Positions 1,729-45,205 of a stretch of DNA of 64,000 nt are shown piece after piece. Source of the DNA: an uncultured bacterium (GTDB lineage Bacteria; Patescibacteriota; JABMPQ01; CAVVCK01); NCBI GenBank assembly GCA_963746775.1, contig CAVVCK010000002.1, positions 75,571 to 139,570 on the forward strand, given 5' to 3'. The position numbers and the translations under genes are program-made. The stretch's first letter is position 1, and each line of letters opens with the position of its first letter. The notes beneath the pieces were generated by a model. That model was not told the origin of the DNA, did no database searches, and was given only the letters and a program-made list of their open reading frames with translations.

Positions 1729-2818
1729 GGTAGCAATCTATAATTTTTTGTACTAATCTTTTTATATCGAATTTATTTATTAATATCGAAATATTTTTAC
1801 TAAATTCATTTCTATTTTTTAAAATTTCAACTATTGCTTTTGATAGTGCTTCTATATTCTTTGGTTCGACAATAATTCCAGCTTTATATTCTTCAATCTT
1901 TTTAGCTATACCAACAATATTCGTAGTAATCACAGGAGTACCACAAGCTAAGGCTTCTAATAAAACAATTCCAAACCCTTCTTGTGTTGAATCTGTGGAT
2001 GGCAATACAAAAACTTCATACTTATTATAACATTCTACTAATTTTTCATCTGGAATAAATCCTTGAAATTCTACATTGTTTTCTATACCCAACTTTTTAG
2101 TTTTAACTTTGTAATATTCTAATAATTTTCCCTTACCTCCCACAATTAACTTTATATTTGGAATTTCTTTTTTTACACTTTTTATGGCTTCCAATAAATA
2201 ATCTAAACCTTTATAGGCATGATATTCATCTAGAATACTAAGAAAGAATATGGTATTATTTTGTTTTTTTATATCTATTTTTTTGAATATTTTTCTATTA
2301 ACGCCAATTGGGATAAATTGAACTTTTGATGAATATTTTTTAAGATACTTCGATGTTTGAAGATAATTTGGTCCAATGGTAATAATTTTATCAGCAAGTT
2401 TTAAAGTTAGTTTTAAAAGCGTGTTGTTATAAATTTTTGAAATTATATTCCCCGCTCCATTTCCTGTAATATCATTACAATATGAAATAACAACTTTTTT
2501 TCCCCTTAATTTAGCAATAATTGCCGACCAATCTGCGCTCCATGGAGTAGGTAGGTAAGTATGTATAATATCAAATTCTTCTTTCCATAATCTAAAAGGT
2601 AATATTAGGGTTAAATTTGTATTAGCAATTTTACATAAATAGTCTAATCTCTCTATTCTGAAACCATTGAGGTTTTTAATATCAGACTTAGGTTCATTGG
2701 CGCAAATAACTTTAACCTTATTACCCAATCTAACAAGTTCTTTCGAAATATCTAAGGCGTAATTTTCTACTCCGCCTGTATAGGGATAAAATCTAACTGG
2801 AGTTTGAACTATTTTCAT
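1712..2818 (-). CDS. Glycosyltransferase family 4 (GT-B fold)
   Basis: 368 aa; N-terminal YPYTGGVENY and C-terminal EGFGIVLLEALACGTPVI motifs typical of GT4/RfaG-like enzymes. Confidence 0.8.
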   Translation of the reverse strand: MKIVQTPVRFYPYTGGVENYALDISKELVRLGNKVKVICANEPKSDIKNLNGFRIERLDYLCKIANTNLTLILPFRLWKEEFDIIHTYLPTPWSADWSAIIAKLRGKKVVISYCNDITGNGAGNIISKIYNNTLLKLTLKLADKIITIGPNYLQTSKYLKKYSSKVQFIPIGVNRKIFKKIDIKKQNNTIFFLSILDEYHAYKGLDYLLEAIKSVKKEIPNIKLIVGGKGKLLEYYKVKTKKLGIENNVEFQGFIPDEKLVECYNKYEVFVLPSTDSTQEGFGIVLLEALACGTPVITTNIVGIAKKIEEYKAGIIVEPKNIEALSKAIVEILKNRNEFSKNISILINKFDIKRLVQKIIDCYHEITN

Positions 2819-3979
2819 TAATTATGTTTTTATAGTATTTTTCTAAATTTTCTATTACCTTTTTCCAATCATATTTAACAACCGACTCTTTAGAATTAAT
2901 ACTTAATTTATTTAATTTATTATTATTTTCTAAAATTTTCTTTGTTTTTCTATAAATATCATTAGTGTTTAATCCTAGCACAAAACCATTGTAATTTTCT
3001 TTAATTAAATCTTTGGCTGCATTATCCTTATGATTAATAGTTATAACTGGCAAACCACAAGCGTTAGCTTCTAACACAACTATTCCAAATCCTTCACGTA
3101 TTGAGGGTAATACAAAAACTTTAGATGATTTAAAATATGAATAAAGATCATGCTGTTTTTCTAAAAATCCTTTAAAAATTATATTTTCCTCTAACTGTAA
3201 GTTTTTAGTTAAATTAATAAGTTTTTCTTTTTCTGGACCATCGCCTATAATTAAACACTTTATTTCAGGAAATATTATTTTTAATTTTGCTACTGCCTCA
3301 ATAATTATATCTACATTTTTTTCCTTAATTAATCTGCCAGCAAAAATAATATCGGAATTGACTTGATTGGATTTAATTTTATTTATATTATTTATATCAA
3401 TCCCAATCCCGATAGTACTTATATTATTCTCTTTATTGGAATTATCTTTAATTATTCTGTTCGTTGTAAAATTCGATATTGAAATAATATTAGATGATAG
3501 TAAAATTACTATTTTTTCAATAAAATATCCTAAATATCCTGCTAGTTTTAAATATTTCCGCCAATATTCTTTTCCCCAATATTCAAACCAGGTAATTACT
3601 AAAGCTATTCTTTTTATCTTTGAATAAATAAAGCAAGGAAAAACTGAAAAATAAGGAAAAGCTGCGCAATCAACTAAATCAAATTTTTCTTTAAAAAGCG
3701 GCTTAATTAATTTTAGGCCAAAATAGATAGCTTGCCCATCGAGCGTCGACCAGATTCTATATATAATTTCTTAGGCTTACAAACACTATGATACCAAATA
3801 TTATTTTTAAAAATAATATCTTCTCCCTGCCAAAATTTCATAGAAAAAAAATGAATTTCGTGTTCATTCTTTCCGCCTACAGCCAATCTAGATAATCTTT
3901 TACCAATTTCATAATATCTTTTTTCACCCCCACCCTTAACATAAGGATACAAACAATCATATATAAAAGCTATTTTCAT
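2793..3979 (-). pseudogene. GT4 glycosyltransferase interrupted by a single frameshift near 3713-3780
   Basis: N-terminal GT4 domain ORF 3713..3979 ([24 protein letters not shown]...). A second frame, open from about 3780 to 2793, encodes the rest (...GRLIKEKNVDIIIEAVAKL...EGFGIVVLEANACGLPVI...). Joined they give about 395 aa. Confidence 0.55.
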
Positions 3980-5136
3980 TTACTGTCTTTATTTAAATTT
4001 ATATCAAGAATACCATAAAAAAATGCAGAAAATATTATCTGTAATCCTAAAATTATTAAAATCATAGAGGTTAAACTCTTCCTTATTTCATATAATTCTC
4101 CAAAATCCACTTTGTACCAAGTATAAAATACATATATCCCCATTATAATCCCTAGAAATAAAACTAAAAATCCTAATTTTAACATTTTCTCTAAAGAAAT
4201 ATACTTTTCTGAAAATTTATTCATTTTACCTTTAGATATTAAACCCTCAGAATAAGCATAAATTTTTGTAAAAAGTCCAAAACTAACTATTTGAAAGCCT
4301 ACTATTGTTAAAAGCGCTCCTAGAAACATCGGGTGAATATCCAGGGTAACATTTCCTAACTTAATTGGTCCAAAAGTCATCCAAATAACTAAAAGCAATC
4401 CTAGACCTGTTAAAAAAAATCCCGGAGCTAAAAATAAATAAGAAGGAGACATAATCAACATAAATTTTAAATGACGCCAACCATCATTAAATGTCTCTAG
4501 CTTAGATTCACCTTCTCTGATACCATACTCTATAGGCAATTCCTTAATTTTCAAATTTTCACGGGCAGCCGCCATAATCATTTCTGAAGCATATTCCATA
4601 CCCTCAGTTTTCAATTTTAATTTATCATAAGCCTGTCTTGTAAATGATCTAATACCGCAGTGAGCATCTTTAACCTTTACTTTAAATAAAATTCTTAAAA
4701 TAGCTGATAAAATAGGGTTACCTATATATCTATGTGAAAATGACATAGCTTTTTTCTGCATTTTTTGAGCAAATCTATCCCCTATTACCATATCATAACC
4801 AGCTCGCAGAGGTTTTATAAAATCATTTACAATTAAAAAATCATAAGTGTTATCAGAATCACCCATTAAGATATATTTACCCTGAGCTTCTTTAATTCCG
4901 GCATGATAAGCATTGCCATAGCCTTTTTTGGGCTGGTGCACTATTCTAGCTCCTAGGCTTTTAGCAATTTCAATCGATTTATCAGTTGAACCATTATCAG
5001 CTATTATAATTTCGCCATTGAGGTTATTTTTTTTTAATCCTTTTTGAGCCTTTTTTATACATATTCCAATAGTTTTCTCTTCATTCAGACAAGGCATAAC
5101 CACAGATATTTCTGGTTTGTTAAACTTCATTTTCAA
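3976..5136 (-). CDS. GT2 polyprenyl-phosphate sugar synthase (DPM1/GtrB/ArnC-like) with C-terminal TM segments
   Basis: [13 protein letters not shown]...[13 protein letters not shown]2 signature; hydrophobic C-terminal third. Confidence 0.75.
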
Positions 5137-6052
5137 AATATTTAATTGTTTTTTTTAATCCTTCCTTTAGATTAACTTTTGGTTCCCATTTTAATTTAGA
5201 TTTTGCCAAAGTAATATCTGGTTTTCTTTGTTTGGGATCATCTTGAGGTAAAGATTTATACATTATTTTACTCTTAGATTTAGTTAATTTAATAACTTTT
5301 TCCGCTAATTCCTTAACAGTAAATTCAACAGGATTACCCAAATTCACTGGTCCAGTAAAATCCTTTGGTTGTTGCATCATTCTATATATTCCTTCGACTA
5401 AATCATCTACATAACAAAATGAACGTGTTTGCAACCCTTTGCCATAAATTGTGATAGATTCCCCTCTTAGTGCTTGTAGAATAAAATTAGAAACTACGCG
5501 ACCGTCATCAGCAGCAAGTCGTGGTCCATAAGTATTAAAAATACGAATAATTTTAATGTTAACGTTATTTTGTCGATGATAGTCCATAAATAATGTTTCA
5601 GCACAGCGCTTGCCTTCATCGTAGCATGCTCTAGGACCTAAAGTATTTACATGACCGACATAACTTTCTTTCTGTGGATGCTCTTCTGGATCACCATAAA
5701 TTTCCGAGGTTGAAGCCTGCAGGATAGGTGCTTTAATTCTCTTAGCTAAACCTAGCATATTTATTGCTCCCTGTACCGAAGTTTTAGTGGTTTGTACTGG
5801 ATCTCTTTGATAGTGTATAGGAGAGGCTGGACAAGCTAAATTATAAATTTCATCCGTCTCTATATATAAGGGGAAATTAACATCATGACGAATTACTTCA
5901 AGTCGTTTATTACTTAATAAATGCTCAATATTTTTTTTCTGACCTGTATAAAAATTATCTACACAAATAACTTCATGGCCTCTATTTAATAGATACTCAC
6001 ACAAATGTGATCCTATAAAGCCTGCCCCGCCTGTGACTAAACTGGTTTTCAT
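5120..6052 (-). CDS. UDP-glucuronate decarboxylase (UDP-xylose synthase, UXS/ArnA-decarboxylase-like SDR)
   Basis: [22 protein letters not shown]...[18 protein letters not shown] and YDEGKR catalytic motif match the UXS family closely. Confidence 0.8.
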
Positions 6053-6063
6053 TGTTTTATAAA

Positions 6064-7005
6064 TTATTTATTCTCAATTATTTCTTTAATATTATAACTC
6101 TTTCTTTTGCTATTATAATAAGTTTTAACAGCGATGTCAGCGAGTAGTCCCGATATAAATAACTGCAAACCGGCTAATATCATAAAAACTGAAATAATAG
6201 GCCAGATTCTATTACTTAGAGTAAAATATTCCAAAAATCTACCAATTAATAAAAATACTAATATAAAAGATCCTGCACCACCTATTAGAATACCCAATCC
6301 TCCAAACAAATGCAGAGGTCGAGAAGAATATTTTCTCCAAAACCATACTGACCAAGCATCAATGAATCCTTTGACAATTCTTTTCCAATTATATTTGCTC
6401 TGACCATATTTTCTTTCCTCATGTCTTACTTTTACTTCGGTTATTTTAAATCCTTGCCAGCGTAGGATGGCTGGTATAAATCTATGCATTTCACCATAAA
6501 GATCTAAATCTTCAAAACATTCTCGCCTATAAACTTTTAGAGTACAACCAGAATCGTGAATATTATCTTTTATTAAAAAGCTACGTAAATATTCTGCTCC
6601 TTTGGAAAATAATTTCTTTGAAAATGGATCTTTCCTTGGAAATCGCCATCCAGAAACTACATCATAACCTTCTTCTAGTTTTTCTATCAATTTTGGAATT
6701 TCTGCTGGAGGATTTTGGCCATCTCCATCTAAAGTTATAATTATTTCCCCCCTACTTGCTTTAATTCCAGCATCCAAAGCAGCAGTCTGACCAAAGTTTT
6801 TACGAAATCTAATAATTTTTAGAGGAGTTAAACTTTTTATAATTTCAAAAGATTTATCTGTGCTGCCGTCATCGATGAAGATTATTTCATAAGAACTATC
6901 TATTGATTCTATTACTTTTACAATATCCTGATGTACTTCTCCAATAATCTCAGACTCATTAAAAATAGGAACTATAATTGAATATTTTAAATTATTTGAT
7001 GTCAT
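6064..7005 (-). CDS. GT2 polyprenyl-phosphate glycosyltransferase (GtrB/ArnC-like) with C-terminal TM helices
   Basis: [11 protein letters not shown]...[11 protein letters not shown]...[11 protein letters not shown]; two C-terminal hydrophobic helices. Confidence 0.75.
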
Positions 7006-7239
7006 TAGTTGTGCATTGTAAATGTTTGAATAATATTTTTATTATATTACCAATATAGAAATTCATGCCAGATAATTAATATCTATCTGTCTATTAATAA
7101 CTATGCTTATATATCCAAATTATTTATAAATCTACCTTAAATAATAACAAACTAAAAAATAGCTGTCTATCCTATTGTTTTTTATTGTACTTATGATAAA
7201 TTATTAATAATTATTATTTAAAATTTACGAAAAAATAAA

Positions 7240-8265
7240 ATGAAAAAGGCATTAATTACTGGCATAACCGGCCAGGATGGTTCTTATTTAGCTGAATTCT
7301 TGTTAAGAAAGAAATATAAAGTTTATGGTTTAGTCAGGCGTTCTAGTACAGAAAAATTTGATCGCATAGCTCATATAATTGATAAAATTGAACTTATCCA
7401 AGGTGATCTTACCGATCAAAGTTCTCTTATTTCTGCCTTACAAATTTCTAAACCAGACGAAGTCTACAACTTAGCTGCTCAGTCATTTGTTCCAACATCA
7501 TGGAATCAATCTATTTTGACTGGCAATATTACCGCCCTAGGAGTTACAAGAATACTTGAAGCTATAAGGACTGTTAATCCTAAAATAAGATTCTATCAGG
7601 CTTCTAGTTCAGAAATGTATGGTAAGGTCAGAGAAACTCCACAGAATGAAGATACTCCTTTTTATCCCCGCTCTCCCTATGGTGTATCTAAGGTTTATGG
7701 TCATTATATTACTGTTAATTTCAGAGAGAGTTATAATATGTTTGCCGTATCAGGTATATTATTTAATCACGAATCTCCACGTCGAGGCTTAGAATTCGTA
7801 ACGCGTAAAATTACTGACGGGGTAGCTAAAATTAAACTTGGCCTAGCTTCTGATTTGCAAATGGGTAATTTAGAAGCTAAAAGAGATTGGGGGTTCGCAG
7901 GTGATTATGTTCAATTAATGTGGAAAATGCTGCAACAGAAAAAACCAGAAGATTATGTTATCGGTACAGGAAAAACTCATTCTGTAAGAGAATTTATAGA
8001 AATTGCTTTTGATTATGTCGGTTTAGACTACAAGAAATATGTTAAAGTGAATAAAAAATTTGTCCGCCCTGCAGAAGTTGATTTATTAGTTGCTGATCCT
8101 AGTAAAGCTCATAAAAAACTTGGATTTAAGCCAAAGGTATCTTTTGAAATGTTAATCAAAATGATGGTAAAAGCAGATTTGGAAAGATTATCAAATGAGT
8201 CAAAATATCAATTAGTTAGCGGGAAAAAGGGTAAAAAATATCATAATACTGTAGGAAATATGTAA
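7240..8265 (+). CDS. gmd: GDP-mannose 4,6-dehydratase
   Basis: MKKALITGITGQDGSYLAEFLL...GLVRRSS...SEMYG...NHESPRRG, a canonical Gmd sequence. Confidence 0.9.
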   Translation: MKKALITGITGQDGSYLAEFLLRKKYKVYGLVRRSSTEKFDRIAHIIDKIELIQGDLTDQSSLISALQISKPDEVYNLAAQSFVPTSWNQSILTGNITALGVTRILEAIRTVNPKIRFYQASSSEMYGKVRETPQNEDTPFYPRSPYGVSKVYGHYITVNFRESYNMFAVSGILFNHESPRRGLEFVTRKITDGVAKIKLGLASDLQMGNLEAKRDWGFAGDYVQLMWKMLQQKKPEDYVIGTGKTHSVREFIEIAFDYVGLDYKKYVKVNKKFVRPAEVDLLVADPSKAHKKLGFKPKVSFEMLIKMMVKADLERLSNESKYQLVSGKKGKKYHNTVGNM

Positions 8266-8548
8266 ACTACGTACGAAAGGTATCTCTGGTAGGTGGCTTC
8301 TACGAGGTCGTAGACCTTAAACCACCTATTGATCACATACAAATTTTAATGTATAGATTATAATTATAATAAAGCTAGATAAATTCGTATGTGGTGAGAT
8401 AAACATTATAAACCTCTGCCTATGTCGCCACATACAGAATCTTAATGCTTCAAAATAAATATTTTAAATCAATTAGAGTCTAAACTTCAAATAGTATTTA
8501 ATAATATTTTAAGAATTTCATACGTGGTCGAAGGCTTTCGTACGTAGT
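8266..8548. repeat. MITE-like element bounded by a perfect 14-bp terminal inverted repeat (ACTACGTACGAAAG / CTTTCGTACGTAGT)
   Basis: Inverted repeats at 8266-8279 and 8535-8548, starting directly after the gmd stop. Internal hairpins (CTACGAGGTCGTAG; CGTATGTGG...CCACATACAG). Locally higher GC than the surrounding sequence. Confidence 0.45.
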
Positions 8549-8632
8549 AAAGATTTTAAAAAATAAAAAAATCTGTAATAACAATTAGTATAATATATAA
8601 ACTACAATTCATGATCTATAATATATAATTCT

Positions 8633-9553
8633 ATGTTTAAAAATGCTCTAATAACCGGCATTTCCGGCTTTGTCGGACCATATCTAGCCCAAGAACTCAT
8701 TAAACATGGATATGAAGTTTTTGGTTTGGATCGCGCTGGAAATAATCAGCTAGATTCAAGATTCCAAATACAAGATTCTCATATTTTAAAATGTGATTTA
8801 TTGGATAAAAATGATATTCTTAAAACAATAAATAAAATCAAACCAAAATATATTTTCCATCTAGCTGGTTTTAGTTCTGTTAGAGATAGTTGGAATAAGC
8901 CTGAATTATGCCGTAAAATTAATGTGGAAGGTACTAAAAATTTATTAGATAGTATTATTGAAGCTAAGCTAAACCCAAGAATTTTAATAGTTACTTCGGC
9001 TGAAGTTTATGGAAAGCCAAAAGAATTACCTCTAAAAGAAACTTCTCCCCTCTTCCCTGAGAGTCCTTATGCTAAATCAAGAGTAGAACAAGAAAAATTA
9101 CTCAAAAATTATAAAAATCTTGATTGGATTGTTTCCCGAAGTTTTAATCATACTGGTCCAGAACAACAACCTATTTTCGTTATCCCTGAATTTGCCCAGC
9201 AATTAATTAATATTAAAAATAATAAAATTGAACCAAAAATTATGGTGGGAAATTTAGAAGCAAAAAGAGATTTTAGTGATGTTAGGGATGTAGTTAGAGC
9301 TTATCGCCTACTTTTGGAAAAAGGTAAAATGCATGAAATTTATAATGTTTGTTCTGGTAAATCTTATATGATTAAAAATTTATTGAATAAAATGATTAAA
9401 ATAATTGGCAAGAAGGTTGATGTTGAAATTGATAAAAATAAGTTTAGGCCGGTGGATATTGAGGAATTAAGAGGAGATAATAGTAAGATTAGAGAGTTGG
9501 GATTTGAGAATAGATTTGGGATTGAAGAGACACTAGAAGATATGATGAAATAA
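8633..9553 (+). CDS. rmd: GDP-4-dehydro-6-deoxy-D-mannose reductase (GDP-D-rhamnose synthase)
   Basis: ITGISGFVGPYL...SPYAKSRVEQE...SRSFNHTGPEQQPIFVIPEF...VGNLEAKRDFSDVRDVVRAYRLLLEKG, parallel to Pseudomonas Rmd; located immediately after gmd. Confidence 0.7.
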   Translation: MFKNALITGISGFVGPYLAQELIKHGYEVFGLDRAGNNQLDSRFQIQDSHILKCDLLDKNDILKTINKIKPKYIFHLAGFSSVRDSWNKPELCRKINVEGTKNLLDSIIEAKLNPRILIVTSAEVYGKPKELPLKETSPLFPESPYAKSRVEQEKLLKNYKNLDWIVSRSFNHTGPEQQPIFVIPEFAQQLINIKNNKIEPKIMVGNLEAKRDFSDVRDVVRAYRLLLEKGKMHEIYNVCSGKSYMIKNLLNKMIKIIGKKVDVEIDKNKFRPVDIEELRGDNSKIRELGFENRFGIEETLEDMMK

Positions 9554-9599
9554 TTAGACTGATTTATATATTAAAAATTCAACGTTTTAATATATTATT

Positions 9600-9885
9600 A
9601 TGTTTTTTATCATTATTTAAAGAAAATATGTCATTTTTTTCTCCTAAAATATTCTTAGCTGCATAAATACTAATTAAGATGGAATGATCCATACTTGTTA
9701 TATTTAAACATACTATTTCTACCTGTAGTCTGTAAATTATCAAAATTATTTAAGAATTTTTTTATTTTTTCTAAATTATTTTTATAATCCTGATCATATA
9801 CAGGATAACCTTTGGCTAATTTTTCTAATAATTTTGGAATCTCCTCAGGAGGATTCTGACCGTCCTCATCTGGTGTTATAATTAT
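9600..9885 (-). pseudogene. Gene-fragment mosaic: degenerate copy of the C-terminus of the adjacent Glf-like gene, plus a GT2 fragment (…DEDGQNPPEEIPKLLEKLAKGYP)
   Basis: 9610-9800 aligns by eye with 9940-10130. 9770-9880 aligns with the GT2 gene segment near 6690-6760 ([18 protein letters not shown]). Confidence 0.45.
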
Positions 9886-11299
9886 TTTTCCTCATTTCAT
9901 GATACTCTTTATCAACGTTCACTGAAAATAAATCATTATTCTCTCCTAATATATTTTTAGCAGCATAAATTCCTGTTAAAATAGAATGATCCATATTATT
10001 ATACTTAAACATCCCATTTCTACCTATTATTTGCAGATTCTCAAATTTATTTAAAAATGATTTTATTTTTTCTAAATTATTTTTATAATCTTCATCATAT
10101 ACAGGATAAGCCTTGGGTACTCTAGCTACATAGCCATCTATAAATTTATCTTTTTCTCCTAATTTTATTTTCTCAAGCTCTTCTAACGCTTGATTTATTA
10201 AAAAGCCATCTTTTTTATTCCAAAAGTTATCGTTTTCATTACAAAAATATTCCATTCCCAAAACCGTTTTATTCTTATCCTTTAACATATGTATGCTCCA
10301 GTTTTTAAAATTCTGTATTCTACCTAGCTTTACTTCCGGAGAATGTATATAAACCCAATTGTCTGGGAAACATTCTTTTTTGTCTAATATTAAACTAATT
10401 ATGATAAAACTTCTATATTTTAGGTTTTTGGCAGATTTTAATACATCTACTGGAGGTTTGGGATTCATCTTTAATACTAATTCTGATATGGGCATGCTTG
10501 ATACAAAGCTATTAGCTTTAAACTCCTCAGTAATATTTTCTTTATTACTTACTTCTACAGAAAATATTTTATTGTTTTTCCAATTTATTTTTTCTACGTT
10601 CTTATTTTTCATAACCTTGCTACCAGTATTGTTAATGTTATCAGCCATTTTTTCGTACATCATGCCAGGACCATATTTGGGATACTTAAATTTATCAATT
10701 AATGTTTTTATTTTTTCTTTTTTATCAGGAAAAAGTGCATTCTTAACAGCCCGAGATAGAGAAAGACCTTTAATTCTTTGGGCAGCCCACTCTGCTTGAA
10801 TTTGATTACAAGGTATTCCCCATAATTTTTCAGTATAAGTTTCAAAAAATATTTCAAATAATTTTTTTCCAAATCTATTAGAAACCCATTGATCAAATGT
10901 CTTTTCTTTATTTATTGGAAAAATCTTTATCTTTACATAACTCCCCAATACAGAAAAAGAAGTAAATATGCCCAAATTAAATAAGGCATTGAAAGGTTTT
11001 AGTGGATAATAAAAGAATTTATTGTTGTAATATATTCTAGAAAGTCTTGGTCGTGTTGGAAAATCTTTTTGTAAAGTTTTATTCCAAAGATCTTCTACTT
11101 CTCTTGATTTGGTAAAAAATCGATGCCCTCCAAGATCAAATCTATAGCCCTTGTATTCAACCGTTTTACTTATTCCCCCTACCTGTTTTTCCTTTTCTAA
11201 AACTAAAATATCCTTATTATTATTAACTAAGGTAACTCCACAAGCAAGACCAGCTGGTCCAGCACCTATGATTATTGTATTGATTTTATTTATATTCAT
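9866..11299 (-). CDS. UDP-galactopyranose mutase-family (Glf-like) FAD flavoprotein, extended form
   Basis: IIGAGPAGLACG Rossmann motif; GGHRFFT and YTEKLWG motifs shared with Glf (GAHIFHT, YTEKQWG). 477 aa, longer than canonical Glf. Confidence 0.6.
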   Translation of the reverse strand: MNINKINTIIIGAGPAGLACGVTLVNNNKDILVLEKEKQVGGISKTVEYKGYRFDLGGHRFFTKSREVEDLWNKTLQKDFPTRPRLSRIYYNNKFFYYPLKPFNALFNLGIFTSFSVLGSYVKIKIFPINKEKTFDQWVSNRFGKKLFEIFFETYTEKLWGIPCNQIQAEWAAQRIKGLSLSRAVKNALFPDKKEKIKTLIDKFKYPKYGPGMMYEKMADNINNTGSKVMKNKNVEKINWKNNKIFSVEVSNKENITEEFKANSFVSSMPISELVLKMNPKPPVDVLKSAKNLKYRSFIIISLILDKKECFPDNWVYIHSPEVKLGRIQNFKNWSIHMLKDKNKTVLGMEYFCNENDNFWNKKDGFLINQALEELEKIKLGEKDKFIDGYVARVPKAYPVYDEDYKNNLEKIKSFLNKFENLQIIGRNGMFKYNNMDHSILTGIYAAKNILGENNDLFSVNVDKEYHEMRKNNYNTR

Positions 11300-11720
11300 T
11301 TTTTGCTGTAAATAGTAAGTATTTTCTAGCTAAAAAGTTCCATAGAAAAACGATAAAAATAGCAATAATCTTAGATAAAATATACCACAAATTAAATGTG
11401 GTTGTTAGAATCCACAAGACGATCCCATTAAATAACAGTCCAATAAAGCCAATAATGAAAAAAAATAGTATCTCTTTGCTAGCTTGATATTTATTTTTTG
11501 TAAAAATCCATATTTTACTTAGAACATAATTCACAATTCCTCCGATGACAAAACTAAGTGTGGCAGATACTAAATAATATAAATTAACATATTCAGTTAG
11601 TATAAATAATATGGAAATATCTAATATAGCCGACACGCTCCCAACAAATAAATATCTGAATAATTGAATATAGATATCTTCTGTTTTTTTCTTAAAAATG
11701 ATATTGAGAAAATATAGCAA
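11286..11720 (-). CDS. GtrA-family small membrane protein (lipid-linked sugar translocation)
   Basis: 144 aa, four predicted TM helices, YLFVGSVSAILDISILFILTEY signature of GtrA-like proteins. Confidence 0.7.
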   Translation of the reverse strand: MLYFLNIIFKKKTEDIYIQLFRYLFVGSVSAILDISILFILTEYVNLYYLVSATLSFVIGGIVNYVLSKIWIFTKNKYQASKEILFFFIIGFIGLLFNGIVLWILTTTFNLWYILSKIIAIFIVFLWNFLARKYLLFTAKNEYK

Positions 11721-11740
11721 TTTATTTTAATCTATTATTT

Positions 11741-12232
11741 TTATTTTCTAAAAATACCCCACTGAGACAACATGCCGACTTTTTTTATCTTTTTTTCTTT
11801 AAAATAAGTAATGTTTTGAATATAAATACAATTATGTTTACTTGTTCTTTTTTGATTTAAATTAACTTTTTCTAAAAATTTACAAAACCAGTCAAAATAT
11901 GGAACTGGAGTTGTGATTAATAACTCTCCTCCTTTTTTTAATAGATCATAACACTCTTTGAAGCAATTAATATGCTCTACTACTTCAAAAATAATTATTA
12001 TATCAAAAGATTCTTTTTTTAATCCTAGGGTTTTCCAGTTTTTAATACTGCCAACAATATCGGCAGGTGGTTTTATGTCTATTCCTGTATAAAATTTGTA
12101 CTGGTTCTTTAAAAAATAGCTTTTTACCCACCCTTCTCCACATCCAATTTCTAATATCCTACTATCTTTTGGGATATTCTTTAAAAAGTAATTTATTTTT
12201 TTTGCTTTAGCTATTTCACTCAATAAAGGCAT
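11741..12232 (-). CDS. Class I SAM-dependent methyltransferase
   Basis: ILEIGCGEGW motif I; 163 aa. Confidence 0.6.
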   Translation of the reverse strand: MPLLSEIAKAKKINYFLKNIPKDSRILEIGCGEGWVKSYFLKNQYKFYTGIDIKPPADIVGSIKNWKTLGLKKESFDIIIIFEVVEHINCFKECYDLLKKGGELLITTPVPYFDWFCKFLEKVNLNQKRTSKHNCIYIQNITYFKEKKIKKVGMLSQWGIFRK

Positions 12233-12346
12233 ATTATTATAAAGTTATTTATATATTTTAATATTTTTAAGGATTAATTCTGAATTATTATTCAATACAG
12301 GCTCAATTACAATATTTCAATAAGTCTATCGTATTTTTCCTGGTAA

Positions 12347-13921
12347 TTATTTTTTTAAATATACAGCATGCAAGCTATTATTTGTAATAATATTAATATA
12401 TTCAGATTCTAATGTTCCACTCTGGCTAAAAAATACTTCTGATTGGTTTTTATTAAGAACCAATATTATATCTGGCTTTCCGTTCATATTTTCTATGGTT
12501 TTGTCTTTAAACTTATTTTTCCATTTTTTTTCTAATCTTCTTTCATACTCTTTAGTATATTCTCTTTCTATTAGATAACCATATAAATTATTAACCCCCT
12601 CAATAGTTAAATATGTTATTGATGAAGAAATAACTTCAGACTTCTCTAATGGATCAAAGACAAAAAGTATTTTTGAATCTGATTTGGTGTTTTTTGTAAC
12701 AGTTGACAATAATTCATTAGTTTCTTTTCCTTCCTTGGCAAAGTTAGTAGCTTCTACCTTCACTGTCCAAAAAGATAAGGTAATAAAAATAAAAATAACT
12801 AAATAAACTAATCTTCTGCAAAATATTTTTTTAGTATTTTTTACAATAATAATAGCTAAAACAGATAATCCTAAAATACTTGGTAATAAATAACGCTCAG
12901 CCATCCCTGACTTTGAGTATAAGAATATATTAGGTAAAACAATCATTATAGAAAAAGAAAGGTAAAGTAAAAGATATTTTATTGATTGAATAAACTTCTT
13001 TTTTCTTTCATTTTTTATAAACAAGAAGGACATTCCATGTATTACTATTAAAATCAGTAATAATATTAACCAGCCTAATAAAGAATTTTTATTTAGTATA
13101 ATATTTTTTATTCCTTTAAGATATCCGTAGACAGATAAACCTGTCCCGGCATATCCGATTTTATCTGTTCCTACTACATATTTAATAAACCATAATTCAA
13201 ATAACATTATTATCATTGGTAATGCTAATAGCAAATTATTTTCAATGCTTTTCTTCATTGGAATATTAAATGTATTTTTTTCATTCCAAATTTTAAATAA
13301 TACAAAAGCTGGAATTATAATAACAAAACTTTCTTTACTTAAAGAAGCTAAAATTAAAAAAATAATAAATAGTATTGTATTCAATAAATATCTCTTCTTT
13401 TTAATGCACTTTGTCATAAAATAAAAACTAAATCCAAGAAATACCATGCCTATTGTTTCATTTGGCCCAAGCCGCCACCATATAGCCATTTGTGATCCTA
13501 TAAATGTTAAAAATATAAAAATTAACGATAGAAATACAGAAAGATTTAATTTTCTAGCACCTATGTAAAAAAGAGAAAAGGTCAAGGCTGCCAAAATTCC
13601 AGTATAAAATGAAAGAATAAAAAAATTAATTCCTAATAGTTTTATTTCTAAAACTCGATGTAAAAAATATATCGGCCTAAAACGAATATTAAAATCATTA
13701 CCGATCCATTCAGTTGACACATCTATAAAGGAATTACTTTCTAAATCAGAATGAATTTTTAACATTTCATGATCATCTATAAAATGATAACCTGAATTAA
13801 GCGTTCCAGTAAGAAATAAAAATAATAAAATACCAACAAAAAATAAAGTCACTATAGAATAATCAAAATATTTAGTACCTTTAAATTTTGAAACATACTT
13901 TATTATATTTCCTAGACTCAT
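12347..13921 (-). CDS. GT-C membrane glycosyltransferase (ArnT/PMT, GT39/GT83-like)
   Basis: 524 aa; about 11 TM helices then a soluble C-terminal domain. Sits downstream of a GT2 gene and a small flippase gene, an Arn-operon-like order. Confidence 0.6.
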   Translation of the reverse strand: MSLGNIIKYVSKFKGTKYFDYSIVTLFFVGILLFLFLTGTLNSGYHFIDDHEMLKIHSDLESNSFIDVSTEWIGNDFNIRFRPIYFLHRVLEIKLLGINFFILSFYTGILAALTFSLFYIGARKLNLSVFLSLIFIFLTFIGSQMAIWWRLGPNETIGMVFLGFSFYFMTKCIKKKRYLLNTILFIIFLILASLSKESFVIIIPAFVLFKIWNEKNTFNIPMKKSIENNLLLALPMIIMLFELWFIKYVVGTDKIGYAGTGLSVYGYLKGIKNIILNKNSLLGWLILLLILIVIHGMSFLFIKNERKKKFIQSIKYLLLYLSFSIMIVLPNIFLYSKSGMAERYLLPSILGLSVLAIIIVKNTKKIFCRRLVYLVIFIFITLSFWTVKVEATNFAKEGKETNELLSTVTKNTKSDSKILFVFDPLEKSEVISSSITYLTIEGVNNLYGYLIEREYTKEYERRLEKKWKNKFKDKTIENMNGKPDIILVLNKNQSEVFFSQSGTLESEYINIITNNSLHAVYLKK

Positions 13922-14247
13922 TTGATAATTAAAATTATTGATATAGCTCCTATTAGAATTCCCAAGAATTGTTTTAAAGCTATCTCCTCCTTAAATAAAA
14001 ATATTCCAGCAAAAACAACCCCCAGCATTGTACCGATTGTCATAATGGGACTAATTTTACTAAGATTAAATATTTTTAAAATATAGGCATAAATCCCGAA
14101 AGAAAATAAATAAAACAATCCACCAAAAATAAAATAAACAAAAAAATTAAATTCTTTCAAAAAAGTAAAATCACTGGATTTTTTTAACATAATCTGAGCT
14201 AGGGCACTAAACAAAATACCAAATATTATTAGTAAAATTTTAATCAT
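13918..14247 (-). CDS. Small DMT/EamA-type 4-TM membrane protein (ArnE/ArnF-like lipid-sugar flippase subunit)
   Basis: 109 aa, four hydrophobic helices, FSALAQIMLKK N-terminal motif; 4-bp overlap with both neighbours. Confidence 0.5.
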   Translation of the reverse strand: MIKILLIIFGILFSALAQIMLKKSSDFTFLKEFNFFVYFIFGGLFYLFSFGIYAYILKIFNLSKISPIMTIGTMLGVVFAGIFLFKEEIALKQFLGILIGAISIILIIK

Positions 14248-15172
14248 TGTTTTTCTCTTTAATTATATAGTTAGGTCTTTTTTTTGATTCCATAAATAAT
14301 TTCCCAATATATTCTCCTAAAATACCAATCATAATCATTTGAATGCCACCAATAAACAATATGCCAACAAGTACAGACGCCCACCCTGACAATGCTCTAT
14401 CCGTGAATAATTTTATAATAATTGCATATACCCCATATATAAATGCTACAGCAGCCATTATATAACCAAATATAGTAGAAATACGTAGTGGTTTTATACT
14501 AAAACTAGTAATGCCATCAATAGCAAATTTCATCATTTTTTTTAGAGTATATTTTGTCTTTCCATGGTACCTTTCGTCTGGCATATATTCGATTCCATAT
14601 TGTCTAAATCCAAGCCAAGAAATCATCCCTCTTAAAAAAAGATTACTTTCTTCAAAAGTTTTTATTATTTCCACTACTCTTCTATCTAACAAACGAAAAT
14701 CTGCAATACCTTTTTTAATTTTAACATCTGAAAAGTTATTCATAATATTATAAAAAATATTTGCTGTTTTTCTTTTAAAGAATGACAATCTCTGATTATC
14801 TTGACGAATTGTATATACTATATCATTACCTTCCTGCCATTTTCCAATTAATTTTGGAATAATATTTGGTGGATGCTGAAGATCACCATCCATAGAAATT
14901 ACACAATCACCAGTTGCAAAGTCTAAGCCAGCTCGTAAAGCATTTTGGTGACCAAAATTACGAGAAAATGATAAATAGTAAATTTTATTATTTTGTTTTC
15001 TTAATTTTTTTATAATTTTTAATGTATTATCAGTGCTTCCATCATCAATAAACAACAACTCATAATCAAAGTGATTTTCCAAAATATCTGTTATTTTTTT
15101 AACTAATATTTCTATATTTCCTTCTTCATTAAAGACTGGAATAATTACTGATGTTTTAAAATTATTATTCAT
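14240..15172 (-). CDS. GT2 polyprenyl-phosphate glycosyltransferase (ArnC/GtrB-like)
   Basis: VIIPVFNEEGNI...[11 protein letters not shown]...ISMDGDLQHPP; two C-terminal TM helices. Confidence 0.75.
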   Translation of the reverse strand: MNNNFKTSVIIPVFNEEGNIEILVKKITDILENHFDYELLFIDDGSTDNTLKIIKKLRKQNNKIYYLSFSRNFGHQNALRAGLDFATGDCVISMDGDLQHPPNIIPKLIGKWQEGNDIVYTIRQDNQRLSFFKRKTANIFYNIMNNFSDVKIKKGIADFRLLDRRVVEIIKTFEESNLFLRGMISWLGFRQYGIEYMPDERYHGKTKYTLKKMMKFAIDGITSFSIKPLRISTIFGYIMAAVAFIYGVYAIIIKLFTDRALSGWASVLVGILFIGGIQMIMIGILGEYIGKLFMESKKRPNYIIKEKNND

Positions 15173-15183
15173 TTTATATAATC

Positions 15184-16641
15184 TTATTTTAACTTATATA
15201 CTTGAAATTGTTTATTTTCAAAAACCATTTTATTATTTTGCTTTAAGTAATTTTGAGTATTTTCTTTGTCTATATTTTTTGTAAAAACAAAATAATTAAT
15301 TTCTGACTCTTTCAAAAATTTAACGGAGTCTATTTTCACAGATTTTCTTTCCGTAAATAAATACATTACCCTAGGTTTAAAAAATACTATTGTCTCTTCT
15401 TCTGGAATATTATTTTTTACATACTTAAACAATTCTATTGAATTGTTAGCATAAGGGCCATTTAGTGAATTATTTACCTTGAAAATGGTTAAATTTTGAA
15501 TTGAAAAAAATATTAATAAGAAAATACCTAGAGTATAAATAATTTTTTTCGAACTAAGCCTAACAATATTTTTAAAGTCAATAATTTGTAATCCTAGTAT
15601 AACAAAAAATAAATAGAAAGGAATAAGTGTTATAATAAATCTTAGCCCTTGTTGGTAAGGATAAATAAGAAACAATCCAAAAGTTAATATAGAAAATAAC
15701 GTATAAAGATAATATTTCTTAAAATCTTTTAAAAAACCTAACACGAAAAAGAAAATGCTAGTGTTATAAATAGCATTAAAAAGATATGTTTTATGAATTC
15801 CTAAAAAATTAGGTAAATAATTTTTATTTCCAAAAAATTTAGCAAATACATCTAAATAATAATAAAAATTATAGGCTACTTGATTTAGAAAATTATTCGG
15901 GAGCAGAGAATGATTGGCCGCATACGAGCCTGATGGCAATATTACTAATACCAATAAATAAGTTATCAGAGATATTAAATATGGCAAACTTTCATCAATT
16001 ATATTAGAAAATCTATGAAACCATTTTTTATATTCAATTAATTGAACTAAGGGTAATAATATAAAGATAATTATAGAATTAGTTCTTATAAAAACACTCA
16101 TAAACATACTAAATCCTAAAATAATTAAACATATTCTTTTTGCCTTTAGTCTTTTTTTTTCACAATAAATCTTCTGAATTAAAAAAACAGACAATAGTAA
16201 AAAAAACATAGCTGGTATATCTGAAAGAACATTTTGCTTAAATAAAAAAAAGAAAGGAGAAGTAGCTATAAGTAAAATTAAAATTAACGATAAATGTTTA
16301 TCTAACTTAGCTTTAAATAAATAATATAAAATAATTAAAGAGCTGATAAAAAAAATATAAGTGACAATTTTCAATATTAATATATTAGCACCAAATAATA
16401 TTATTACTGGAGTTAAAATCAAGGGATAACCCCAAGGATATAGATCTGGTCCAACTTGCTTTTCAGAAAAAGAAACTCTAAAATCTGAGGCATTCACTAG
16501 ATTGTTTATTTTGTTTTCCACTAAAGCCCTTGATTGTCCAATATAGCCGCTAAAATCTCCTCCCCAATTATGTTCTTTATTTAAAGTAGCAATGTTAATA
16601 AAAATTATGATAATAATAAGAGATAATAAAACTTTTTTCAT
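15184..16641 (-). CDS. Polytopic membrane protein, GT-C-like glycosyltransferase
   Basis: 485 aa, N-terminal signal/TM, many TM helices, soluble C-terminal domain; the genomic context is glycan biosynthesis. Confidence 0.5.
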   Translation of the reverse strand: MKKVLLSLIIIIIFINIATLNKEHNWGGDFSGYIGQSRALVENKINNLVNASDFRVSFSEKQVGPDLYPWGYPLILTPVIILFGANILILKIVTYIFFISSLIILYYLFKAKLDKHLSLILILLIATSPFFFLFKQNVLSDIPAMFFLLLSVFLIQKIYCEKKRLKAKRICLIILGFSMFMSVFIRTNSIIIFILLPLVQLIEYKKWFHRFSNIIDESLPYLISLITYLLVLVILPSGSYAANHSLLPNNFLNQVAYNFYYYLDVFAKFFGNKNYLPNFLGIHKTYLFNAIYNTSIFFFVLGFLKDFKKYYLYTLFSILTFGLFLIYPYQQGLRFIITLIPFYLFFVILGLQIIDFKNIVRLSSKKIIYTLGIFLLIFFSIQNLTIFKVNNSLNGPYANNSIELFKYVKNNIPEEETIVFFKPRVMYLFTERKSVKIDSVKFLKESEINYFVFTKNIDKENTQNYLKQNNKMVFENKQFQVYKLK

Positions 16642-16709
16642 TTAAATTTTTATATTGTTGATTGATAGCTCATCCTTTAGTTTTGGATAATATATTTATA
16701 TATTGTTTT

Positions 16710-17354: not shown

Positions 17355-17428
17355 CTTAGAAAATTTTAATAATTATTTCAGTAAAAGTTCATTTCTCTGT
17401 AGTCAAAAATTATGCGCAATATCTAATT

Positions 17429-18367: not shown

Positions 18368-18722
18368 ATTAAAAAATCTTTGAATTATTATTTTTGTTAA
18401 AAAGCCGCTTCCAAATTTTTATTAAACAAAAATACTCTTGCACTTACAATAAAGTAATTTATTTGTTATTGATGTAATAATATTATGTATCGCTATAAAA
18501 ACATTTTTATTTTTTCCTTATTTTCTTTAATGGTGCAAGAGTACCTCTACCATACTTAATATAATTCCAAGTTCGTTTAATTGTTTTTTTTAAACCTTCA
18601 TTTTGTAAATTTGATAAAGCTGAATCAGTAAGATACCTTAGTTTAAATTTGTATATAAATTTATTTACTATCATAATTTCAAATTTTAATTAATTTTATC
18701 ACAAGTAAATTTTTTATTACTA

Positions 18723-24373: not shown

Positions 24374-24406
24374 AATATCTAAATAATTATTTATTAGTTA
24401 TTCTTG

Positions 24407-26230: not shown

Positions 26231-26234
26231 GTTA

Positions 26235-27636: not shown

Positions 27637-27639
27637 AAT

Positions 27640-28066: not shown

Positions 28067-28080
28067 AATTTTTAGACAAT

Positions 28081-44065: not shown

Positions 44066-45205
44066 ATGCCCAATATTTTAATCCTAAAATTTCCCTACAA
44101 TTCTAATCTTGGCGGAGGAGAAAAACATACTCTAACATTAGTTGAAAAACTAAAAACAAGAGGTTTTAATTTTTATTTAGCCTCATCTTGCAAAGTTTTA
44201 CTAGAAGAGTTTAATAAAAGAAAATATAACTTTAAAAAGGTTTGGCTTGGATTAGAGCCTGTATCTATTAAAGGACTTATAGTTTTTACAGCTACTCTGC
44301 CTTATACTTTTTGGCGAATGTTTTTTTTATTAGTTTATTATAAAATTAAACACAAAACACACACTCTGTATTGCCTAAATTTAACAGAAAAATTATTAGC
44401 CACCCTACCTGCCAAATTACTAGGCTATAGAATATTTTGGATGGAACATTTACGAATTGAGAAATGGCTACTGCAAAATCCCTATCGTCCATTCTACGTT
44501 TTATTATCAAATTTTGTCACTACTATTACAGTTTCTAACTCAGTTAAAAAACAATTACTTGATTTAGGTTTAAAAAAAAGTAAAGTTAAAGTTATTTACA
44601 ACGGGATTGATACAAACAATTTTAAACCCAAAGTACCAAACTCTAAGCCCTACTCCCTACCCTCTATTATTGGAACAGCAGGACGTCTAAACACCGAAAA
44701 AGGTATGAATTATTTAATTAAAGCTTTTAAAATTGTTCTAGAAAAATATCCCCATACGGAGCTGCATATTGCCGGCCAAGGTCCAGAAGAAGAAAATTTA
44801 AAAAAATTAATAAATAACTTAGCAATAGAGAATAAAGTCAAATTTTTAGGATATATTGATTATAAAAAATTATCTGATTTTTATAATAACATTGATATTT
44901 TTGCCCTAGCTCCTACTAGACGTGAATCATTCGGTATGGCTGCCGCTGAAGCCTCTGCCTGTGCAAAATCTGCAGTGGTTACTAATATTTCCGGACTTAC
45001 TGAGGTCGTAGAAAATAATAAAACTGGATTTGTTGTAGAAGCTAAAAATATAGATAAAATAGCAAAAGCTTTAATAAAATTAATTAAGAATAAAGAATTA
45101 AGAAAAGAATTTGGAAAAAATGCTAGAGAAAGAATTTTAAATAATTTTACGGAAGAAAAAATGATTAAAGAATTTGAAAAAATATTTACCTATGAAAAAC
45201 TTTAA
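44066..45205 (+). CDS. GT4 glycosyltransferase
   Basis: FPYNSNLGGGEKHTLTLVEKL...; C-terminus RRESFGMAAAEASACAKSAVVTNISG. Confidence 0.75.
   Translation: MPNILILKFPYNSNLGGGEKHTLTLVEKLKTRGFNFYLASSCKVLLEEFNKRKYNFKKVWLGLEPVSIKGLIVFTATLPYTFWRMFFLLVYYKIKHKTHTLYCLNLTEKLLATLPAKLLGYRIFWMEHLRIEKWLLQNPYRPFYVLLSNFVTTITVSNSVKKQLLDLGLKKSKVKVIYNGIDTNNFKPKVPNSKPYSLPSIIGTAGRLNTEKGMNYLIKAFKIVLEKYPHTELHIAGQGPEEENLKKLINNLAIENKVKFLGYIDYKKLSDFYNNIDIFALAPTRRESFGMAAAEASACAKSAVVTNISGLTEVVENNKTGFVVEAKNIDKIAKALIKLIKNKELRKEFGKNARERILNNFTEEKMIKEFEKIFTYEKL

Follow-up and report, generated by a model that had tools for sequence, protein, structure and literature searches.

Two probable extracytoplasmic glycosylation operons in a putative cell-envelope glycan island of a Patescibacteria genome

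The 64,000-nucleotide stretch analysed here (positions 75,571 to 139,570 of contig CAVVCK010000002.1; hereafter the window) opens with two minus-strand operons which, judged from sequence comparisons and predicted structures, probably add sugars outside the membrane from undecaprenyl-phosphate-linked donors. They combine family 2 glycosyltransferases (GT2) resembling lipid-phosphate sugar synthases, small four-helix membrane proteins that are candidate flippases, and membrane transferases of the GT-C fold. This is a known style of extracytoplasmic glycosylation, the three-component style, found here in Patescibacteria (the Candidate Phyla Radiation, CPR) with GT-C families that are mostly uncharacterised. 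Our hypotheses concern the substrates of these systems and not a new kind of system.

In the segment 1-16641, all open reading frames (ORFs) lie on the minus strand except a plus-strand pair at 7240-9553. Operon 1 extends from 16641 to 9866, and operon 2 from 7005 to below position 1 of the window. Within both, neighbouring genes mostly overlap and are otherwise no more than 20 bases apart, the sole exception being a spacer of 114 bases after the gene for GT-C B. The GC content is 22-31% over most of the window, including 1-16641; as stop codons are expected to be frequent in such AT-rich DNA, ORFs of 300-580 codons are not chance occurrences. Every ORF named in a first-pass annotation of the window was recovered at exactly the coordinates it gave. 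The genes of operon 1, from first to last, and the adjoining plus-strand pair are:

15184..16641, minus: GT-C "A", PMT_2/LA_3751-like (PMT_2 28.6 bits, cut-off 26.1)
14240..15172, minus: GtrB-type GT2 with two C-terminal helices, of the polyprenyl-phosphate sugar synthase type
13918..14247, minus: 109-residue four-helix SMR/EamA-type protein, candidate flippase (EamA 30.5 bits, cut-off 28.2)
12347..13921, minus: GT-C "B", ArnT-like fold, motif HFxDDHE after the first helix (AlphaFold2 model and Foldseek)
11741..12232, minus: class I S-adenosylmethionine-dependent methyltransferase (Methyltransf_23 51 bits, Methyltransf_11 44 bits)
11286..11720, minus: GtrA-family four-helix protein, candidate lipid-sugar flippase (GtrA_DPMS_TM 73.9 bits, cut-off 26.1)
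9866..11299, minus: flavin adenine dinucleotide enzyme related to UDP-galactopyranose mutase (UGM) (NCBIfam PRK07208.1-4, 670 bits)
8633..9553, plus: GDP-4-keto-6-deoxy-D-mannose reductase, Rmd-like
7240..8265, plus: GDP-mannose 4,6-dehydratase, Gmd (GDP_Man_Dehyd 444.6 bits)

Those of operon 2 are:

6064..7005, minus: ArnC-type GT2 with two C-terminal helices, candidate undecaprenyl-phosphate sugar synthase
5120..6052, minus: UDP-glucuronate decarboxylase (UDP-xylose synthase, UXS)
3976..5136, minus: DPMS/AglJ-type GT2 with four C-terminal helices (PF00535 96.5 bits)
2793..3979, minus: family 4 glycosyltransferase (GT4) gene with one frameshift (its C-terminal piece matches Glycos_transf_1)
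1712..2818, minus: GT4, cytoplasmic and of the Leloir type (Glycos_transf_1 147.6 bits)
1..1728, minus: GT-C-fold membrane transferase, DUF6311/YfhO-like (AlphaFold2 model and Foldseek)

In the mechanism that we propose, each GT2 would load one sugar from a nucleotide sugar onto undecaprenyl phosphate at the cytoplasmic face, as its homologues suggest. In operon 1 the 109-residue protein, probably as a dimer, would then flip the lipid-linked sugar, a role suggested by its conserved position and its weak similarity to ArnE/ArnF and SMR proteins; for operon 2 the GtrA-family protein may perhaps serve likewise. The flipping of lipid-linked sugars lacks a direct demonstration even in the prototype systems (PMC11127046). 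On the outer side, GT-C B is predicted to move the sugar to a surface acceptor, in keeping with its fold, its invariant DD motif and its conserved adjacency to the other components, and GT-C A probably acts in the same way. Finally, a DedA protein encoded in the distal part of the window (48251-48838) may return the released carrier lipid and so close the cycle. CPR cells are generally considered to be without an outer membrane; therefore, the candidate acceptors are wall polymers, lipoglycans and surface proteins.

The first of these steps is attributed to the three GT2 proteins, which the first-pass annotation had described, aptly, as DPM1/ArnC/GtrB-like. All three match PF00535 (96-121 bits), carry a D-x-D motif at residues 93-97 (DSD at 93 in 3976-5136, DGD at 95 in 14240-15172), and end in hydrophobic helices, two in 14240-15172 and 6064-7005 and four in 3976-5136. 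The 14240-15172 protein aligns over its full length (residues 3-305) with Synechocystis GtrB (5ekp, 267 bits; ArnC 165 bits), and scores 310 bits against the NCBIfam model of PgfS, below its cut-off of 500. The 6064-7005 protein aligns over residues 7-309 with the ArnC structures (149 bits; GtrB 102 bits). Its homologues at E<1e-30 number more than 8000; the best 120 listed are 58-89% identical, many of them from named Patescibacteria; its closest named homologues, at 58-67% identity, come from Patescibacteria metagenome-assembled genomes (MAGs), including Kerfeld-, Nomura- and Moranbacteria. The third, 3976-5136, matches the dolichol-phosphate mannose synthase (DPMS) of P. furiosus (5mlz, 57 bits, residues 4-249) and the AglJ model TIGR04182 (172 bits, about half of the cut-off of 325). 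Its gene shares 17 bases with the UXS gene, and its orthologue in the related locus L065 (724 bits) bears the PF26629 GT2_TM_C domain and follows an ArnC-type GT2. By these features the three proteins class as full-length membrane-anchored polyprenyl-phosphate glycosyltransferases of the GtrB-, ArnC- and DPMS/AglJ-like types, respectively. They resemble ArnC, PgfS and AglJ in kind without being orthologous to them, with the curated cut-offs missed throughout, including that of the ArnC equivalog model PRK10714 (cut-off 529; 162 bits for 6064-7005 and 178 for 14240-15172).

The first-pass annotation had seen multiple three-component modules here. One is complete, comprising the GtrB-type GT2 (14240-15172), the 109-residue protein (13918-14247) and GT-C B (12347-13921); the others are incomplete, the ArnC-type GT2 having no flippase gene of its own and the DPMS/AglJ-type GT2 no assigned GT-C. 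The same annotation had counted the GtrA-like gene among the GT2 modules; its family was correctly named, but its partners in the operon are the methyltransferase and the UGM-like flavoenzyme, with no GT2, and its product misses the NCBIfam gtrA_1 subfamily model (20.5 bits against 50).

The gene for the 109-residue protein overlaps its neighbours on both sides, and its product has four hydrophobic segments. Across nine members of its family, taken from related loci, EamA is matched by all nine and Multi_Drug_Res (SMR) by seven, while the ArnF model is weakly matched by eight and the ArnE model by five; SMR exporter models are matched as well. The best E-values are 7.8e-6 for ArnF and 7.7e-8 for ArnE, with all scores far below the curated cut-offs. 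Residues S14, K22, Y46, F50, P67 and E87 are invariant in the family alignment. The label "ArnE/F-like" given to this protein in the first pass is thus apt at the superfamily level only, and not as orthology to ArnE or ArnF.

The putative transferase of the module, GT-C B, has no Pfam or NCBIfam match, and its sequence search against the PDB returned only noise; 79 of 80 homologues likewise have no Pfam domain. Its AlphaFold model (mean predicted local distance difference test score, pLDDT, 90.7) finds ArnT (5f15) as the top Foldseek match in the PDB (E 1.8e-5), and GT-C enzymes make up all of the first 32 matches, viz., ArnT, ALG12, DPY19, STT3, PglB, AftA and PMT. At a TM-score of 0.49 and 10% identity the likeness to ArnT is structural only. 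A 40-sequence alignment (A1) shows H46, D49, D50, D76, R80, R82, K196 and E197 to be invariant. When 1.84 billion cluster representatives were searched with the family profile, 1,935 relatives were recovered at E<=1e-3, a number which indicates that these proteins form a discrete family, as opposed to the broad PMT_2 superfamily.

Profile scans for GT-C B covered species-representative genomes (64 loci) and metagenomes (80 loci), and the hosts of its relatives include Bacteroidota, Cyanobacteria, Lachnospiraceae, Ignavibacteria and Patescibacteria, among others. In 30 of 63 genome loci the GT-C B gene has a GtrB-type GT2 no more than 6 kb away, in most cases immediately upstream, and most of the metagenome loci with enough upstream flank have this GT2 as well. 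Between these two genes, 20 loci of the two sets combined encode the 109-residue protein; they are mostly from CPR, plus one gammaproteobacterial and one other proteobacterial MAG. L071 and L145, which are the closest relatives, have a GT-C A orthologue (530 and 460 bits, respectively) upstream of the GT2. The constancy of position across loci indicates that GT2, 109-residue protein and GT-C B form a conserved unit, the four-gene form with GT-C A being common to near relatives. In a neighbour-joining tree, the GT2 proteins from loci with the 109-residue protein mostly group together. As a side observation, several Parcubacteria-type relatives (L018 6329-7645, L027 6242-7642, L075 3223-4533) have an extra ORF of 436-466 residues between the GtrB-type GT2 and the 109-residue protein, and it matches no window protein.

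The variant with the 109-residue protein, to which the window belongs, is associated with genes for GDP-6-deoxyhexoses. Of the 20 loci with this protein, nine have Gmd and/or Fcl at a distance of 6 kb or less, as against none of the 122 loci that lack it (Fisher p = 3e-9, kinship among the loci ignored); all four metagenome loci that combine this protein with long flanks have these genes. Fcl was assigned from L013, whose protein scores 328 bits against GDP-L-fucose synthase. A single packed operon unites Gmd, Fcl, GT2, the 109-residue protein and GT-C in L011 (Doudnabacteria), and likewise in L049 (Gammaproteobacteria). This association indicates that a 6-deoxyhexose is either the donor sugar or part of the acceptor. 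In the window itself, Gmd and the Rmd-like reductase are encoded 2.8-5 kb from GT-C B; the latter is closest to 2pk3, a GDP-6-deoxy-D-lyxo-4-hexulose reductase (222 bits), and together the two enzymes (7240-9553) would yield GDP-D-rhamnose, a likely source of the sugar.

For operon 2, nine distinct loci around ArnC-type GT2 orthologues were compared, their genes labelled by phmmer. The L065 operon has ArnC-type GT2, AglJ-type GT2, GT4, GT4 and a homologue of the 1-1728 GT-C in the same order as the window, with a UXS gene 2 kb upstream, and in L069 and L070 the GT-C homologue overlaps the end of the ArnC-type GT2. By such conservation, the ArnC-type GT2 (6064-7005) and the GT-C (1-1728) constitute a conserved pair, putatively of donor-maker and transferase. 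In five other loci, the start of the ArnC-type GT2 gene is overlapped or abutted by a gene of the short-chain dehydrogenase/reductase (SDR) superfamily. In L067, L068 and L154 the SDR protein is nearest to structures of the UDP-glucuronate 4-epimerase type (6zl6, 211 bits), and in L151 and L152 to 4-epimerases of the GalE/WbpP type. The SDR next to this GT2 therefore differs between loci, being UXS, uronate epimerase-like or hexose 4-epimerase-like, as though it set the sugar, and with UXS in that place in the window, undecaprenyl-phosphate xylose is the most likely product of the ArnC-type GT2. The lipid-linked sugar of operon 2 would, on the strength of its neighbourhood, most likely be xylose.

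The identity of the decarboxylase, which the first-pass annotation had recognised, is clear: over residues 2-309 it matches human UXS1 (4gll) at 393 bits (E 8.5e-117), the next family reaching 131 bits and ArnA 85 bits, and it has the extended-SDR motifs GGAGFIG (8), TSEIYG (115) and YDEGK (144). By these criteria it is a true UDP-glucuronate decarboxylase and not ArnA-like. Of the earlier proposal that a pentose is placed on the lipid carrier, the xylose option is thus favoured, whereas the Ara4N-like option (4-amino-4-deoxy-arabinose) is not, given the UXS type of the decarboxylase and the absence of Arn genes from the window. The Rgt system of Rhizobium offers a parallel: there, the ArnC-like GT2 RgtE makes a lipid-phosphate uronic acid donor for the GT-C enzymes RgtA-D. 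The operons of L067, L068 and L154, with an ArnC-type GT2 orthologue beside a UDP-glucuronate 4-epimerase-like SDR, are akin to it in gene arrangement; the neighbour in the window is UXS and not an epimerase. A further locus deserves mention: in an Erysipelotrichaceae MAG (L055 6053-8672), the genes directly after that for a true UXS (484 bits) encode a GtrB-type GT2 and a member of the GT-C B family, which again hints at a coupling of this family to UDP-xylose.

Put together, these neighbourhoods open a reading that we entertain tentatively, as a minority possibility: the donors would be a polyprenyl-phosphate 6-deoxyhexose made from a GDP-sugar in operon 1 and undecaprenyl-phosphate xylose in operon 2, sugars undescribed for GtrB/ArnC-type systems. 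The sugar of operon 1 may be D-rhamnose here and L-fucose in the relatives with Gmd and Fcl, with the 109-residue protein as its flippase and GT-C B as its user; in operon 2, the ArnC-type GT2, whose conservation across Patescibacteria is high, may make undecaprenyl-phosphate xylose for the DUF6311-like GT-C. Were this true, the envelope of CPR bacteria would be decorated chiefly from outside the cell, with modular donors set by the adjacent sugar-nucleotide gene. The open-access papers searched yielded nothing relevant on a lipid-linked xylose, fucose or rhamnose donor and nothing on CPR with GT-C, which is weak evidence of novelty. The leads are the tie of the GT-C B family to GtrB-type GT2 across phyla, the way in which the 109-residue protein tracks the genes for GDP-fucose or GDP-rhamnose, and the changing SDR neighbour of the ArnC-type GT2.

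Several observations tell against parts of this picture. The sugar identities are read from gene neighbourhood only. Among the loci of operon 2, UXS adjoins the ArnC-type GT2 in the window only, being 2 kb off in L065; three of the nine relatives have no SDR adjacent to this GT2; and among the window ORFs scanned there is no UDP-glucose dehydrogenase, the enzyme that feeds UXS. As for the putative flippase, the 109-residue window protein scores 14 bits against ArnF, where the cut-off is 99, so that the ArnE/ArnF cut-offs (NF011625, NF002816) are missed, and BLASTP against E. coli ArnE gave no alignment, a weak test in that the ArnE sequence used was unverified. In operon 1, the GT2 proteins of loci with and without the 109-residue protein score alike against the window GT2, and GtrB-type enzymes are described as users of UDP-sugars (PMC11127046). 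Given both of these points, the Gmd/Fcl link could reflect the acceptor polymer or shared CPR ancestry.

This leads to the alternative that we rate close to an even chance, namely that operon 1 is a classical Gtr-type system, which charges undecaprenyl phosphate with glucose (or N-acetylglucosamine) from a UDP-sugar, while the deoxyhexose genes serve cytoplasmic glycosyltransferases that build the acceptor, as in streptococcal rhamnan decoration. It is consistent with GtrB as the nearest solved relative and streptococcal PgfS as the nearest NCBIfam model of the GT2, with the UDP-sugar use just cited, with the many loci in which GT2 and GT-C B have no nearby sugar-nucleotide genes, and with the numerous GT4, GT2 and GT8 genes of the island, which could consume GDP-rhamnose. 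It sits less well with the packed Gmd-Fcl-GT2-109-residue-GT-C operons, where the L011 run has no other glycosyltransferase and that of L049 only two short soluble GT2, and with the restriction of the link to the variant with the 109-residue protein.

Comparison with the Gtr system and its Gram-positive counterparts (CsbB-GtcA-YfhO, GacI-J-K-L and PgfS-PgfM1-PgfM2) cuts both ways. The full-length alignment of 14240-15172 with GtrB, its score against the PgfS model, the presence of a GtrA-family gene in the window and a YfhO domain in one relative of 1-1728 all speak for kinship. In S. mutans Pgf, two GT-C genes lie on either side of a single GT2, an arrangement shared with the window. On the other hand, the window protein between GT2 and GT-C is of the SMR/EamA type and not the GtrA type, the GT-C B family almost never matches a Pfam model, and the window variant is linked to GDP-6-deoxyhexose genes and not to UDP-glucose. 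The pentofuranose system of Citrobacter youngae (GT136) shares the same three-component concept, in that a glycan is decorated outside the membrane by a GT-C, with a flippase and a sugar donor of the lipid-phosphate type (PMC11127046). It deploys a polyprenyl phosphoribose synthase dependent on phosphoribosyl pyrophosphate and a MATE flippase, with xylofuranose arising by epimerisation of lipid-linked ribose, whereas the window has GT2 synthases and a UDP-xylose synthase; it also shows that GT-C families of the three-component type are still being founded (PMC11127046).

For operon 2, an archaeal-style scheme competes with the paired ArnC-type GT2 and GT-C and seems to us unlikely: the AglJ-type GT2 would begin an oligosaccharide on undecaprenyl monophosphate, which would be extended by the GT4 enzymes and transferred en bloc to protein or polymer by 1-1728, and the ArnC-type GT2 would provide the last xylose, added outside. 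The model for this is N-glycosylation in Haloferax volcanii by AglJ, AglD, AglS and AglB, and the window resembles it in having an AglJ-like GT2 whose C-terminal domain comprises several helices and, in one operon, GT4s together with a GT-C of STT3-like fold. AglJ is the best NCBIfam model of 3976-5136, the order GT2, GT4, GT4, GT-C is co-linear in the window and L065, and oligosaccharyltransferases are the best structural matches of 1-1728. Yet the AglJ score falls far under its cut-off, the window is bacterial, in L069 and L070 the GT-C directly follows the ArnC-type GT2 without an AglJ-type GT2 or GT4, and one of the two GT4 genes in the window is frameshifted. The N-terminal 88 residues of that gene (3713-3979) are in one frame and the remaining approximately 300 codons, down to 2793, in another; its counterpart in L065 (10098-11252) is intact, and it is either a pseudogene or an error of sequencing or assembly. 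The other GT4, 1712-2818, has an orthologue (498 bits) at the equivalent position in L065.

Bearing further on this scheme, no WWD or WWE motif occurs within the 576 available residues of 1-1728, so that the WWDxG signature of STT3, PglB and AglB is lacking in that part. The window edge cuts off the C-terminus of this protein, with at least 130 residues outside, and relatives are 700-1034 residues long. It has no Pfam or NCBIfam match of its own; of 28 homologues, some match PF19830 (DUF6311) and one PF09586 (YfhO). The D54 in its motif PGxGxDxFQ is nearly invariant (at least 90% of 26 sequences), and its AlphaFold2 model (pLDDT 85.4) has GT-C enzymes as all 17 best Foldseek matches in the PDB, viz., STT3, PglB, AglB, DPY19 and AftD.

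Beyond the two operons, the distal part of the window encodes two further GT-C proteins in a cluster of plus-strand genes:

45174..46619, plus: Wzy_C-domain protein of the polymerase, ligase or O-oligosaccharyltransferase type (Wzy_C 88.9 bits, cut-off 31.7)
46731..48197, plus: GT-C of the PMT_2 type, NDEARD after the first helix (PMT_2 42.2 bits, cut-off 26.1)
48251..48838, plus: DedA/VTT-domain protein, candidate carrier-lipid recycling flippase (VTT_dom 68.6 bits, cut-off 33.9)
48843..50642, plus: GT-C of the PMT_2/PMT type, TDEVAH after the first helix (PMT_2 58.4 bits, PMT 38.9 bits)
50761..52050, plus: Wzy_C-domain protein (Wzy_C 77.8 bits, cut-off 31.7)

All five GT-C candidates, as proposed in the first pass, carry the signature of the fold, two of them (12347-13921 and 1-1728) by predicted structure and three by Pfam PMT_2; GT-C A in addition reaches 21.5 bits with PMT and 31 bits with NF047440. 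No ArnT model is found among the NCBIfam matches (E<=0.01) of 12347-13921, 15184-16641 and 1-1728. Acidic residues (Asp/Glu) lie 10-25 residues past the first helix in every candidate, so that the lack of acidic motifs which the first pass had named as a mark of non-glycosyltransferases is not observed; in the single sequences of the PMT_2-type proteins these are DE at residues 45-46 (46731-48197) and 36-37 (48843-50642) and D29 (15184-16641). The same annotation had also called the five genes paralogues, which does not hold up: all-against-all phmmer of the five proteins found no pairwise similarity, and comparing the GT-C B alignment by hhalign with each of the remaining four gave nothing, with a probability of at most 1.4%. 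With no similarity detectable among them, they are not paralogues in the usual sense and belong to at least three families.

It is very improbable that the GT-C candidates are instead other polytopic membrane proteins, with the GT2s acting on soluble or polymer acceptors. Two candidates do have no HMM match, and the PMT_2 score of 15184-16641 is just 2.5 bits over the cut-off, but the structural matches are exclusively to GT-C enzymes, ahead of any transporter, the acidic residues after helix 1 are invariant or nearly so in the two families aligned, and the adjacency to GT2 of the lipid-phosphate sugar synthase type is conserved.

The Arn system has many points in common with the window: a GT2 with two C-terminal helices, a pentose derived from UDP-glucuronate and carried, in the window putatively, on undecaprenyl phosphate, a small four-helix candidate flippase of the DMT (drug/metabolite transporter)/SMR type, and a GT-C of ArnT-like fold for transfer on the outside, with 6064-7005 nearest to ArnC among solved structures and GT-C B nearest to ArnT by fold. 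The differences are equally plain. The genes for the ArnA formyltransferase, ArnB and ArnD are absent from the window, the decarboxylase is of the UXS type, a single small gene stands in place of an ArnE/ArnF pair, the Arn cut-offs are all missed, and lipid A is not to be assumed as the acceptor. The gene order differs too: the first-pass annotation had taken 14240 to 12347 to mirror arnC-arnE/F-arnT, but the E. coli operon reads arnBCADTEF. That the decarboxylase feeds a 4-amino-pentose loaded by the ArnC-type GT2, as in polymyxin resistance, is scarcely credible: ArnC is indeed the nearest solved structure of that GT2, the adjacent gene does act on UDP-glucuronate and a small ArnE/F-like protein is present, but the UXS1 score far above that of ArnA makes UDP-xylose, as opposed to the 4-keto intermediate, the expected product, the window ORFs scanned include no aminotransferase of the DegT type, no formyltransferase and no deformylase of the deacetylase type, the curated cut-offs of ArnC, ArnE and ArnF are all missed, and lipid A is not known from CPR bacteria. 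In sum, the first-pass reading is partly supported: largely right in kind, and mistaken on module pairing, arn order, paralogy and the Ara4N option.

Turning to the remaining genes of these clusters, the DedA gene is placed exactly between the two PMT_2 GT-C genes, this trio being flanked by the two Wzy_C genes that the first pass had also noted, and the distal GT-C pair is thus accompanied by DedA and has no GT2. DedA proteins flip the C55-P carrier lipid (PMC12893004, PMC11474028), and the placement suggests that carrier-lipid recycling is coupled to GT-C activity. DedA, Gmd, Rmd and the UGM-like flavoenzyme are relevant window genes that were absent from the first-pass annotation. For the flavoenzyme, UGMs are the only solved relatives, the eukaryotic type being best (84 bits, residues 6-350), and its gene overlaps that of GtrA by 14 bases. 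The packed trio of methyltransferase, GtrA and flavoenzyme (9866-12232) is conserved in none of 154 loci.

Immediately upstream of GT-C A are a Sulfotransfer_2 gene and, beside it, a gene for a 312-residue protein (16710-17354 and 17429-18367, minus); the latter has no Pfam match and shows a P-loop-like GTEKTGTTT close to its start. The two may point to sulfation of a glycan in this CPR bacterium.

The two operons and the distal cluster belong to what is probably a cell-envelope glycan island of a Patescibacteria genome. Glycan genes occupy 1-34842 and 41935-52050, i.e., about 45 kb or about 8% of the 547,535-bp contig on which the window proteins are found, and the housekeeping genes of the window (YidC, Jag, RnpA, RuvB, QueA, ClpB, ArgRS and SmpB) are bacterial. 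The contig and the probable Patescibacteria origin make the first-pass remark about a small genome a reasonable one. CPR bacteria live attached to other microbes, have genomes near 0.5-1 Mb and a surface chemistry that is almost unknown. The size of the island, with five GT-C and three enzymes of the lipid-phosphate sugar synthase type in a small genome, makes extracytoplasmic glycan decoration look like a major investment of the organism.

The island holds other routes as well. At 21428-32080 (minus) are large multi-domain glycan enzymes, including a 981-residue fusion of GT2_4, methyltransferase and GT4, a separate GT8-methyltransferase fusion, and an 836-residue protein that combines TupA-like ATP-grasp, methyltransferase and TOD1/MUCI70. 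An ABC-2 transporter pair (30581-32080) in this segment indicates that the island also has an ABC-transporter-dependent polymer route, and a Wzx-type gene lies at 41935-43353. Also inside the island are a DUF559 endonuclease-like gene (33224-33568, minus) and an IS200-like Y1 transposase gene (43470-44054, plus).

A promoter and terminator scan of 1-18500 returned counts equal to those of shuffled sequence, the AT-rich DNA making the scan uninformative, and an Rfam scan of the window found a single tRNA-Ser and nothing else. The GC-rich stretch at 34-38 kb was considered as rRNA and rejected, as two protein genes lie there: a tandem of near-identical genes (34953-36167 and 36677-37897, minus) encoding Cu-binding_MopE repeats and a Laminin_G_3 domain, with a GC content of 39-46% against about 26% in the rest of the window. 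A similar gene is found near the GT2/GT-C pair of L069 (852-2234). Between this tandem and the Wzx-type gene, 38331-41833 holds tRNA-Ser(CGA) together with rnpA, yidC, jag, a PRC-barrel gene and one that encodes a 23S rRNA intervening-sequence protein. As a set, rnpA, yidC and jag are usually found close to the origin of replication, and the cumulative GC skew of the window levels off around 38-50 kb.

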